Shown here: in pieces, positions 21,001-24,000 of the stretch
Layout of the letters: each line of letters begins with the position of its first letter
Position numbering within the stretch: the stretch's first letter is position 1
Source of the DNA: a virus
Taxonomy: Duplodnaviria > Heunggongvirae > Uroviricota > Caudoviricetes
DNA length: 57,176 nucleotides
IMG/VR virus record: IMGVR_UViG_646564533_000015
Coordinates: 1 to 57,176 of that record
Strand: one strand, 5' to 3'
Position numbers: made by a program

Positions 21001-24000
21001 CGGTCAGTCGCATGGCAGCCCCCTTCATCCGGGTTAATGCCTCGCCCGGGATCAGTTCACCGTCCTCACGAATCACCTTATCCCGGCTGCCCTGAATGTA
21101 GGCCAGCAGCACGGCGGTAGCCTGACGAACCTTGTCCATCAGCATGTCATCATCCGCGTCATGGTCGACACGCAGATGTGCCTTGATCTCTTCCAGTGTC
21201 AGTAATGCCGTCATTTTCCGCCTCCTGCATCCCGTCCACGTTTGGCAGCCAGGGTCCAGCCTGATGAATGAGCTTCTCCGGGTTTATCACCGGTCATACT
21301 GTTGCAGTGCCACAGCGAGCCCCCCCACGTCACCGTATCACCGGGGTGGTAGGTTTCACCGGCTCTGAACACACCGCGGTAGAGCATCACCGGCAGGGAA
21401 AATGTTTTTTCCGTACGCTGGCCACTGCTCTGCCGGACCACCACAGTGAACGACCGTTCGCCGGTCATGCTGACGTCAATATCGGCCACCCCGTCAACCA
21501 GGCATTCCCATCCCCGCATCCCGTGCGTTTTTTCATACGCCCGCCAGAGTCCGCCCTGGTGTGTGGCATACGTGCCCCGGGGAAAGGATTTTTGATCGTC
21601 AATGGCGGGGATTATTTCCAGTGCCGTGGCATCACGCCCGTCCTGCGGAGCCGGCAGGGCTCTCACCGCATCCAGAACAGCCTTCTGCAGAACATCGGGA
21701 TCATAGTCACGACCATCACGCGGAACAGGAATATGGCTTACCGCCTCTTTCACCATCTGTTCAAGCATCGGACGCACATCATCGGGGGTAATACTTTTGC
21801 CGTCCGCCGGTACCGGAATATTCGCGACCGCATCATTCACCGCCTTCTGCAGTACTTCCGGATCGTAATCACGACCATCACGCGGAACAGGAATATGGCT
21901 TACCGCCTCTTTCACCATCTGCTCAAGCATCGGACGCACATCATCGGGGGTAATACTTTTGCCGTCCGCCGGTACCGGAATATTCGCAACCGCATCATTC
22001 ACCGCCTGCTTCAGTACTTCCGGATCGTAATCACGACCATCACGCGGAACAGGAATATGGCTTACCGCCTCCTTCACCATCTGTTCAAGCATCGGACGCA
22101 CATCATCGGGGGTAATACTTTTGCCGTCCGCCGGTACCGGAATATTCGCAACCGCATCATTCACCGCCTGCTGCAGTACATCCGGATCATAATCACGACC
22201 ATCACGCGGAACAGGAATATGGCTTACCGCCTCCTTCACCATCTGTTCAAGCATCGGACGCACATCATCGGGGGTAATACTTTTGCCGTCCGCCGGTACC
22301 GGAATATTCGCAACCGCATCATTCACCGCCTGCTGCAGTACATCCGGATCATAATCACGACCATCACGCGGTACCGGAATGGCCCCCACAGCATCATCCA
22401 CCATCGCCTGCAGAACCGGACGCACCTCATCCACCGTCACATGCTTCTGTAATACCGCCGACAGGGAAGTCAGTTTCTCTTCAAACGCTTGTGCCTGCGA
22501 GGCCATCTTCCCCTCAAATGTGCGCTGTAAATCCGCCAGCACCGTGGAGAATTCTTCTCCCAGTGCACGAATAATGGACAGTTCCCGTTCCGTCATTTTC
22601 GCAGTATCCCCCTCAACATCGCTTTCACCGCACCATGCTCTGTTTCACTGATTGCCTTATTACCGTCAGATGCGCCGTCAGGCAGTTGGGCTGAAACTCT
22701 TTTCCCGGACGACGCAAACGGATCTTCACGGGCATCACGACGGGACAGCGCCTCCAGACTGTAGTTCTGCTGCTGAAGATACAGTGCATCACCGCCGGCA
22801 AGGGGCGGCAGGTTCTCACGTTTACGGGCCTCATTGGGCGTGAGAAGCGTATTTTTCACCGCATCCCCCAGCGTTTTCATGCGCCGTTCGCTGTCCATTC
22901 TCAGCAGCGTGGTGACGTCAAACTCCGTACTCTCGTTTTCCCCCGTTTCCAGCGCCTCATCCAGTAACAGTTCAATGGACTCAATCAGCGTCTGCAGGCA
23001 CTGGGAATAATACTGCTGCTCCAGCGCCTCCACGTTGTCACTGGAAGGTGGCTGGCCAACGCCAATCTTGTAGGCCGGGACACGGAACACCGAACAGACA
23101 ATTTCAGCGGTCATCTTCAGTTGTTCCACCGTCTGCGCATCCACCGGTGAAAACGTCGTGGGGTTGTATTTTGCCCCGTTGCTCAGAATGGCCGTTTTCC
23201 CCGCATTTTCGCCGGTATACCCGCTGTCCCAGTTGCTCTTCAGTTTTTTCGCATTTTCTTCCGTAATACTGCCGGGGATCTCAATCACCCCGGACGGCCT
23301 GCCGCCATTTCTGAAAAAAGACGTCGAATTTTCCTGAATATGATGCCCCTGCGTGGCCGCCAGCCCGGCAGCATACACCGGCGGCAGCCCCACAAGCGGA
23401 TGAAAAAAACAGTTAAACCGGTCGTGGATCACTTCCCTGGCAGGCACCGTCACCGCCTCCGTGATCCCGCAGTTCCGGTCCGGTGTAATGCGATAGAACA
23501 CCTCGCCGTCATCCGCCACCAGAGGTTCAACCCGGCTCCAGTCCAGAATACGCAGTTCTTTGATCTGCCCCCGGGAGTTACGGATTTTCAGCACCACCGT
23601 ATTGCCGTGACGCAGTTTGGCGTTCAGCCACAGTTCAAAAAACTGGATACGATTCTGCTGTGCATTGGGACGACGACAGAGACGGGCAATATCCCCCTGC
23701 CGTTTTTCACGGCGGATCCCCTGTGTATCCGTCTGCATCAGGCGCAGCCGCATTTTGGCGATATCCTGGGATATCAGCGAAATGCAAGAAAACACCGCAT
23801 GAAAGGAGAGGACACTTTCCGGATCGGCTTTCACACCCTGCTGCCAGGCGCCGGAAAAGGGCTCAGCCACCGCCTGAAACAGGCTGGTCCAGCCCGCCTC
23901 TCTTACGTCACGTCCTGATTTCTGGTTTTTTCGGGTTCGCCGTAAAAGGTTCCACATTCGCCATGCTCCGCATCACGTTTCTTTTTCTGACCTGCCGGAC

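Follow-up and report, generated by a model that had tools for sequence, protein, structure and literature searches.

The 57,176-nucleotide window analysed here (positions 1 to 57,176 of the IMG/VR record IMGVR_UViG_646564533_000015, a tailed phage) carries on its minus strand, at 21211-22596, an open reading frame (ORF) of 461 amino acids that was termed ORF X. The protein is composed of an N-terminal helix, a spacer made of 162-bp tandem coding repeats and a C-terminal β domain (PHROGs 2271, 1289 and 16748), and its gene overlaps the end of the gene for the portal. The best overall explanation of the data, to which a probability of about 60% was given, is that ORF X is a conserved, portal-coupled member of one HK97-like head module, that its repeats form a spacer of variable length, and that the protein would serve as a fibre at the portal vertex. 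The anatomy and the evolution of ORF X within this account are very probably correct. The external fibre is its tentative part and is slightly favoured over a place inside the capsid.

The repeat array and its length variants

Analysis of positions 20500-23500 with Tandem Repeats Finder returned one array, at 21680-22380, with a period of 162 bp, 4.3 copies, 97% matches, no indels and a score of 1290, and this was the sole large array across the 57-kb window. The first-pass annotation of this DNA had described 162-bp coding repeats amounting to about 4.5 near-identical 54-residue units in a 461-residue protein at 21211-22596. The same ORF was recovered, and the description of the repeats was a fair one. 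In the protein register five 54-residue units occupy residues 56-325 of ORF X (21622-22431, minus strand), where the central units 2-4 are nearly identical, with pairwise 3-6 differences per 162 nucleotides, and the outer units 1 and 5 are more diverged (20-54 nucleotides). What the annotation had missed is that every unit consists of two related sub-modules of 25 and 29 amino acids, giving ten alternating helix-loop modules in total. In each sub-module a helix of 13-17 residues leads into a loop, for example IPVPRDGRDYDPD or IPVPADGKSITPDD (IPVPxDGxD-type), so that the spacer is a series of short amphipathic helices separated by Pro/Asp/Gly-rich loops in which the E. coli unit is a 54-residue module pair. 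The net charge of the repeat region is about -23. On the opposite strand, an open frame of 394 amino acids (21268-22452, plus strand) spans the whole array; the periodicity of the repeats keeps it open, and it most likely arises from them and is not a gene.

The repeats do not owe their number to collapse or expansion during assembly. The segment 21100-22700 is 100% identical to the complete O145 E. coli genome NZ_CP028379.1, and the record of phage BP-4795 contains an ORF59 of 461 amino acids, equal in length to ORF X. Matches to the region in related enterohaemorrhagic E. coli (EHEC) prophages and Shiga toxin (Stx) phages spanned 3001, 2839 or 2677 bp, and a 1601-bp query gave match spans of 1601, 1437, 1275 and ~1114 bp in complete genomes. 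At 116 IMG/VR loci, the complete ORFs downstream of the portal were 245, 299, 353, 407, 461, 515 or 569 amino acids long, with modes at 407 and 353. The downstream ORF was open in 78 of 90 loci, where lengths departed by no more than 2 amino acids from the 54-residue series and all the variants were in frame. Copy number in E. coli prophages ranged from ~0.3 to 6.3, always in frame, which places the 4.3 copies of the window toward the long end.

A conserved phage gene here carries, in frame, a true variable-number tandem repeat, with near-identical units arranged head to tail, a variable copy number, steps that are multiples of 162 bp (54 amino acids) and a reading frame that is kept. It had been proposed that such arrays expand and contract to give strain-specific lengths, and comparison of related prophages bore this out in exact 162-bp steps. 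Stepwise change of this kind fits gain and loss by slipped-strand events or unequal recombination, either of which would add or remove whole units. The locus was present in 1,246 of 5,426 complete E. coli genomes (~23%), with a median of six places per genome, and the several near-identical prophage copies within a genome probably aid the gain and loss of units. Arrays with a period of 162, or of 174, 132 and other values, were also found in relatives from Pantoea, Pseudomonas, Caballeronia and Phytobacter. These arose separately, and module duplication is a recurrent event in the family.

An array of up to ~1 kb in multi-copy prophages probably contributes to broken short-read assemblies, and dozens of the database matches are 'partial' portal proteins on short contigs. 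The array could also act as a length marker that separates co-resident EHEC prophages.

The ORF X protein and its family

The N-terminal region of ORF X, ~55 amino acids (22432-22596, minus strand), is predicted to be helical by a low-confidence single-sequence model and by the family consensus. The repeat spacer follows, and the conserved C-terminal β domain covers residues 326-461 and the stop codon (21211-21621, minus strand). Within the latter, residues ~405-455 (21232-21384, minus strand) carry the motif YRGVF..G.TY..GDTVTWGGSLWHC...KPG.....W and resemble a carbohydrate-binding module (CBM) of family 5/12. ORF X matched no Pfam or NCBIfam family at threshold; only a sub-threshold match to CBM_5_12 and spurious matches were returned. 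Matches to the Pfam families TetR_C_35, FliG_N and DUF4244, together with a faint match to 'QatB' (PF28083), were rejected as artefacts of the repeated helices, and none of them passed on its own stretch.

An exhaustive HMMER search identified 5,621 homologous cluster representatives (50% identity) at E <= 1e-3, and 648 at E <= 1e-30. Most family members stand alone as proteins of 250-500 amino acids and share a plan of an N-terminal helix, from 0 to at least 18 modules of the V..AV...P.P.DG type, and a conserved C-terminal domain ending in ...Y.GV[FY]..G..Y..GD.VT.GGS.W......KPG.....W.L.VKRGRDG. The helix-loop consensus of the window protein recurs throughout the family, and the spacer is the evolvable part of the protein. 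The added length of the 47 longest members was accounted for by further modules, with no enzymatic or toxin domains found in them, and a role as polymorphic-toxin or enzymatic cargo was accordingly rejected. A metagenomic representative of 1,237 amino acids (P0227) has ~24 modules in which the loop LPxPEPLPDI takes the place of PVPxDGxD, and such PEPxP-type linkers indicate that the plan of a helix plus a Pro-rich linker is older than the DG motif. The family is large, lacks a Pfam model and has never been characterized; no description of ORF X or of its array was found in the literature on Stx-phage portals, prophages, neck fibres and repeats.

In some relatives the protein is extended by a collagen-like Gly-X-Y tail, the best match to Pfam Collagen having E = 1e-9. 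Among the relatives P0122-P0175, many extend past ...KRGRDGKDG with a short collagen-like stretch and a terminal P[VI]R[LV][KR], as in GPVRLK, SPIRLR and APVRVEK. This terminal motif is missing from the E. coli proteins, which end ...RDAGGGK; the window ORF X itself ends ...KRGRDAGGGK, without a Gly-X-Y run, and is not a collagen-like fibre protein in that sense.

Residues 292-461 were modelled with AlphaFold2 from a 38-sequence alignment, giving a mean predicted local distance difference test (pLDDT) score of 91.5 and showing one helix-loop module followed by an all-β domain. A full-length model made without an alignment had a pLDDT of 41 and was unusable for the repeat region. The best Foldseek matches were to tail fibres of Agrobacterium phages 7-7-1 and Milano, with the CBMs of chitin deacetylases next, and the neighbours of the domain in BFVD were collagen- or CBM-bearing fibre proteins. 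The β subdomain that precedes the CBM-like module had no structural match in Foldseek. When compared with PDB sequences, the family profile reached CBM-bearing chains at ~1e-3, while the single ORF X protein gave matches only at E ~0.5. The score of PF02839 (CBM_5_12) on ORF X was 20.3 bits, below the gathering cutoff of 26.2, and relatives scored 21.9-24.8. In the predicted structure, however, the C terminus has the small β fold and the conserved exposed aromatic residues of CBM5/12, and the last ~50 residues of ORF X are predicted to adopt this chitin-binding-type fold.

The portal junction and the head module

The gene upstream of ORF X encodes an HK97-family portal of 454 amino acids (22593-23957, minus strand; phrog_12) that covers positions 2-343 of the 343 positions of TIGR01537 (E = 4e-106). 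Its stop codon TGA (22595-22593) and the ORF X start codon ATG (22596-22594) overlap as ATGA at 22593-22596. The junction reads ATG TTG AGG GGG ATA CTG CGA AAA TGA, and the portal ends ...MLRGILRK*. The tract of five G residues (G5; 22608-22612, minus strand) in the last portal codons (AGG GGG ATA) is the likely Shine-Dalgarno (SD) sequence of ORF X. Through the ATGA overlap and this SD-like stretch, translation of ORF X is coupled to that of the portal.

In many E. coli copies of the locus, the two ORFs are fused, a point missed by the first-pass annotation. A single extra G (G5 to G6) brings portal and ORF X into one frame, with the sequence ...TTC AGG GGG GAT ACT GAG AAA ATG ACG... (frame MFRGDTEKM...), and produces fusions of ~800-860 amino acids. 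The N terminus of ORF X then runs straight on from the portal C terminus, reading ...GDTEKMTERELS.... When IMG/VR was scanned for the exact patterns, 75 loci carried G5 and 41 carried G6. Both forms occur in the records of named, infectious phages that were isolated separately: BP-4795 is split (ORF58 of 454 and ORF59 of 461 amino acids), while phage 2851 is fused, its EP2851_54 having 859 amino acids and the 162-bp array at 3.3 copies. A fused sequence exactly like that of 2851 was present on 806 contigs, and the distant P0227 protein is an independent portal-ORF X fusion. Phage phi330 was not accepted as evidence of a fused allele, as it differs from the window by several further indels of 1-2 nucleotides across 2.8 kb and its neighbouring genes are annotated piecewise.

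Two rearranged copies of the locus were also observed. In the complete E. coli genome LR025101.1 (locus L005, 565-2816), an element of the IS21 insertion sequence family with IstA/IstB-type ORFs interrupts the portal, and the remnant is a 580-residue ORF that starts inside the portal and continues through the fused repeat protein. A fused allele of 784 amino acids (P0068; locus L004, 3001-5355) has lost the portal C-terminal tail through an in-frame deletion of ~77 amino acids, which is bounded by direct repeats of 'DAVK', two in number (...LGDAVK|AMFRGDTEK...).

The fused alleles have shaped the annotation of the locus. phrog_2271 is an 859-position 'portal protein' profile, onto which the window portal maps at positions 1-451 and ORF X at 527-859, and many 'phage portal protein' entries at NCBI hold both parts. 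ORF X itself has no match to PF04860 or TIGR01537, and it carries the 'portal' label only because of the fused alleles. Loci identical or nearly identical to that of the window are labelled 'phage portal protein; frameshifted' by RefSeq/PGAP. The reference used by the NCBI pipeline is the fused allele, which is derived; the two-gene form, although ancestral, is flagged as a frameshifted pseudogene, and a conserved protein is hidden as a result. The exact 461-residue product of the window was not found in a collection of 15 billion proteins, probably because of the pseudogene labelling.

Outgroup sequences show which form came first. In Kosakonia, Atlantibacter, Kluyvera, Citrobacter, Erwinia and others, the portal ends M[LIF]RG[ILF]LxK*, with AGAGGA ~12 nucleotides before ATGA. 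The junction is an overlap of the ATGA/TTGA/GTGA type in most other genera examined, and in the remainder the portal stop lies a few nucleotides from the start. Since the outgroup portal C terminus, AGAGGA and ATGA match the frame of the window, the two-gene form is ancestral and the fused frame derived. The two-ORF arrangement of the window is both ancestral and intact. AGAGGA serves as the SD-like stretch of the gene downstream; E. coli turned it into AGGGGG, making a short homopolymer that is specific to this lineage and has gained one G repeatedly. Haplotypes of ±200 bp around the tract carried G5 on many diverse backgrounds and G6 on 2-3 clusters, with both alleles on four haplotypes, a distribution that points to a few independent +1 G events followed by spread, possibly with some reversions or sequencing errors.

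The position of ORF X was surveyed in one genome per species, giving 57 loci from Enterobacterales, Pseudomonas, Burkholderiales, Rhizobiales, Sphingomonadales and others. An ORF X homologue was separate in all 57 species, with its start overlapping or abutting the stop of a portal homologue of ~450 amino acids (52 of 54 upstream ORFs by phmmer). The order of terminase large subunit, protease-capsid fusion, portal and ORF X was kept in 50 of 51 loci from alpha-, beta- and gamma-proteobacteria, and the tail genes downstream varied. A place between portal and connector had been called unusual; the shared order of these loci shows it instead to be the rule for this head module, of which ORF X is a fixed member. 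Median identity over 50 loci was 60% for the C-terminal domain, 50% for the portal and 30% for the ORF X N terminus, the first value being inflated as the loci were found through C-terminal motifs.

The genes around ORF X all lie on the minus strand. The terminase large subunit (26170-27831; PHROG match) is followed by a 645-residue fusion of an S78 prohead protease and the major capsid protein (MCP) at 24169-26106 (phrog_617, phrog_80 and phrog_10). A protease-MCP fusion ahead of the portal is an atypical order of head genes, and it was kept in 50 of the 51 related loci. Next comes an ORF of 73 amino acids (23903-24124; phrog_829, unknown function), the 3' end of which overlaps the portal start by ~55 nucleotides; its place ahead of the portal is conserved in 15 of the 51 related loci, every one of them from Enterobacterales. 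Beyond ORF X lies the head-tail adaptor Ad1 (20888-21214, 108 amino acids; phrog_40), the start of which overlaps the ORF X stop, and an adaptor of ~108 amino acids is downstream of the ORF X homologue in 40 of 51 loci. After Ad1 there follow a head closure protein, a gp10-like protein, a tail terminator, an Ig-tagged major tail protein, chaperones and the tape measure. The C-terminal Ig-like domain of the major tail protein (18960-19676) has Hoc-like decoration PHROG matches and is a further candidate for a weak glycan-adhesion module on this virion.

Elsewhere in the window, three phage tRNA genes lie at 37671-37922 (minus strand), namely Arg(tct), Arg(tcg) and one with a CAT anticodon that ARAGORN called Met and that may be an ileZ-like reader of AUA. 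No stx-sized ORF was found downstream of them. A small tandem array at 44083-44159 (period 39 with 2.0 copies, or 20 with 3.8) is made of CCCTC(A/G)TTTTAGGG-like units. The ssrA (tmRNA) gene is at 698-1060 (plus strand), near the left end of the window, which suggests that the prophage is integrated at or beside ssrA.

Location in the virion and comparison with known systems

The first-pass annotation had left decoration, scaffold-like and fibre-like roles open. A fibre-like role fits best, and capsid-wide decoration or scaffolding is less likely because ORF X is translationally coupled to the low-copy portal and a scaffold is presumably supplied in cis by the protease-MCP fusion. The portal is present in 12 copies. 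ORF X would be made at low, portal-like amounts, as a component of the portal vertex rather than a decoration of the whole capsid. It could be a neck or collar fibre in the manner of fibritin, with the N terminus anchored at the head-tail junction, the repeats setting the length of the stalk and the CBM-like tip binding a conserved glycan to aid reversible adsorption. Such a fibre is slightly favoured by the CBM-like tip, the collagen-like tails of relatives, the fibre tips among the structural neighbours, the position of the gene beside the adaptor and the free variation in length, the last of which suggests an untethered end.

Several points weigh against an external fibre. The literature searches returned no experiment, virion proteomics or solved structure that places ORF X. 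In known structures, the portal C terminus lies in the crown inside the capsid, and fusions at this point suit an internal location better than an external fibre. Typical receptor-binding fibres vary at their tips with the host, whereas the C-terminal domain of ORF X appears more conserved (60%) than the N terminus (30%) or the portal (50%), even allowing for the bias in how loci were found. The CBM_5_12 score is under the Pfam gathering threshold (20.3 against 26.2 bits, with relatives at 22-25). At a single-sequence pLDDT of 41, the repeat region could be a trimeric coiled coil, a solenoid or a flexible linker, and the PEPxP-type linkers of P0227 resemble a flexible spacer more than an unbroken coiled coil.

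One other interpretation, possible but doubtful, is that ORF X binds or joins the portal C-terminal tail inside the capsid, in up to 12 copies. The acidic helical repeats would then form an inner extension of variable length, like the P22 barrel, SPP1 gp7/Mu gpF or podovirus core proteins, and the CBM5/12-like domain, once ejected along with the DNA, could attach to the chitin-like glycan backbone of peptidoglycan. The fusions speak for this, as they join the ORF X N terminus to the portal C terminus both in 2851 (806 contigs) and, independently, in P0227. So do the strict inheritance of ORF X together with the portal and protease-MCP and not with tail genes, the translational coupling to the portal, the repeat charge of about -23, and a C-terminal domain conserved from alpha- to gamma-proteobacteria, a pattern that suits a universal ligand or a partner in the virion more than a receptor particular to the host. 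Note, however, that collagen-like tails and modules like CBM5/12 are characteristic of fibres on the outside of phages and that, by structure, the closest neighbours are the tips of tail fibres. No lytic or membrane-active domain was found in the 57 relatives scanned, ORF X has no sequence similarity to MuF/gp7, and a range from 0 to at least 18 modules argues for at least one untethered end. The fusions may also merely be tolerated, with ORF X dispensable or still made from the retained SD sequence and ATG, so that they do not fix its location.

It is very improbable, and already largely refuted, that the locus is a frameshifted, non-functional portal of a defective prophage in which the array is drifting junk. 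The PGAP label suggests as much, other copies of the locus have an IS21-family insertion or an internal portal deletion, and EHEC genomes carry many defective lambdoid prophages (PMC2669165). The G5 frame nevertheless gives the portal ending RG[ILF]LxK*, the SD-like stretch and the ATGA overlap seen in other genera, so that it is the window frame that is conserved; two separate ORFs are kept in 57 species; and the BP-4795 record has the same arrangement of 454 and 461 amino acids. The downstream ORF is open in 78 of 90 loci with those copy-number variants all in frame, and G5 is both more diverse and more frequent than G6 (75 against 41 IMG/VR loci). Equally improbable is a G tract that acts as a switch, whether by ribosomal slippage on AGG-GGG-AUA or by phase-variation-like mutation between G5 and G6, through which one lineage could make free and portal-tethered ORF X in a regulated ratio; candidate slippage sequences are AGGGGGAUA and AGGGGGGAU. 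Both alleles are common, four ±200-bp haplotypes carry both, and both forms occur in separately isolated phages. As read from the sequence, tRNA-Gly could re-pair on the G run into the -1 frame (G5) or the +1 frame (G6), and the flanking AGG and AUA are rare codons in a prophage that encodes tRNA-Arg(tct) and a CAT-anticodon tRNA. However, the corresponding stretch in other genera is AGAGGA, which contains no slippery run, and the tract is followed by ATA in the window and by ATT in BP-4795, leaving no conserved slippery-site context; a conserved programmed frameshift was rejected on these grounds. Five or six G residues are also short for a contingency tract, the concentration of G6 in 2-3 haplotype clusters fits a few mutational origins and clonal spread, and the lone discordant G5 calls within G6 haplotypes may be sequencing errors. 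Some G5/G6 calls from draft assemblies may likewise be homopolymer errors, which counts against our own account of the alleles.

Putting some of these elements together, ORF X could be a new class of portal-anchored virion protein at the crown inside the capsid, with G5/G6 as a heritable toggle between free and tethered forms. This we consider unlikely. Were it true, the acidic array and a peptidoglycan-type CBM would act in DNA packaging or ejection, and to our knowledge no crown component of this kind has been described for HK97-like siphophages. The split BP-4795 and the fused 2851 provide a natural comparison for locating ORF X in the virion, whether as the favoured portal-vertex fibre or within the capsid.

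The C terminus of ORF X has a predicted fold like that of the CBM5/12 modules of Serratia ChiB, Streptomyces ChiC (its chitin-binding domain) and Vibrio chitin deacetylase. It differs from them in scoring below the Pfam cutoff, in its location in a phage head module and not in a glycoside hydrolase, and in its extra preceding β subdomain. Similarity to the fibre tips of Agrobacterium phages 7-7-1 and Milano, to Pseudomonas phage Pa193 gp47 and to the baseplate protein All3316 of the Anabaena contractile injection system is confined to the CBM-like part, with low scores (TM 0.2-0.25 over the whole model), and the genes for those proteins are in tail or baseplate modules, whereas ORF X is beside the portal.

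The neck whiskers of phage T4, made of fibritin (Wac), have a terminal anchor, a helical stalk with a number of segments that differs among relatives and a small conserved C-terminal β domain, and the fibritin gene lies beside head-tail joining genes. ORF X, with a putative terminal anchor, a helical stalk that likewise differs in segment number, a C-terminal β domain and a gene beside those for head-tail joining, is like fibritin in architecture only, as PDB sequence and fold searches detected no similarity between the two. In contrast to fibritin, the loops of ORF X are long and rich in Pro, Asp and Gly, and its gene is tied to that of the portal by coupling and, in some alleles, by fusion. 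SPP1 gp7, Mu gpF (MuF) and the C-terminal barrel of the P22 portal are portal-associated and of low stoichiometry. ORF X is like them in following the portal gene, in its fusion to the portal C terminus and in an expected low, portal-like stoichiometry. A Pfam search for the Phage_Mu_F domain gave no match in ORF X at E <= 1 and none in 57 relatives. ORF X also differs from MuF-type proteins in having a CBM-like module, in the collagen-like tails of its relatives and in carrying no toxin or enzymatic cargo; no CBM-like module or collagen-like tail is known in MuF/gp7 or P22 barrel proteins.

The closest comparison is with EP2851_54 (859 amino acids) of Stx phage 2851 and phrog_2271, where the locus is the same and the sequence nearly identical, and one extra G makes a single ORF; the window and BP-4795, with its ORF58 and ORF59, are both split, unlike phage 2851. 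Taken alone, a tandem repeat is nothing out of the ordinary for a phage structural gene. This one belongs to a large family that, throughout three proteobacterial classes, keeps strictly to one HK97-type head module and yet is uncharacterized, and it is the size and anonymity of that family, its strict linkage to the portal and a single-base split/fused polymorphism that misleads annotation which are less ordinary.

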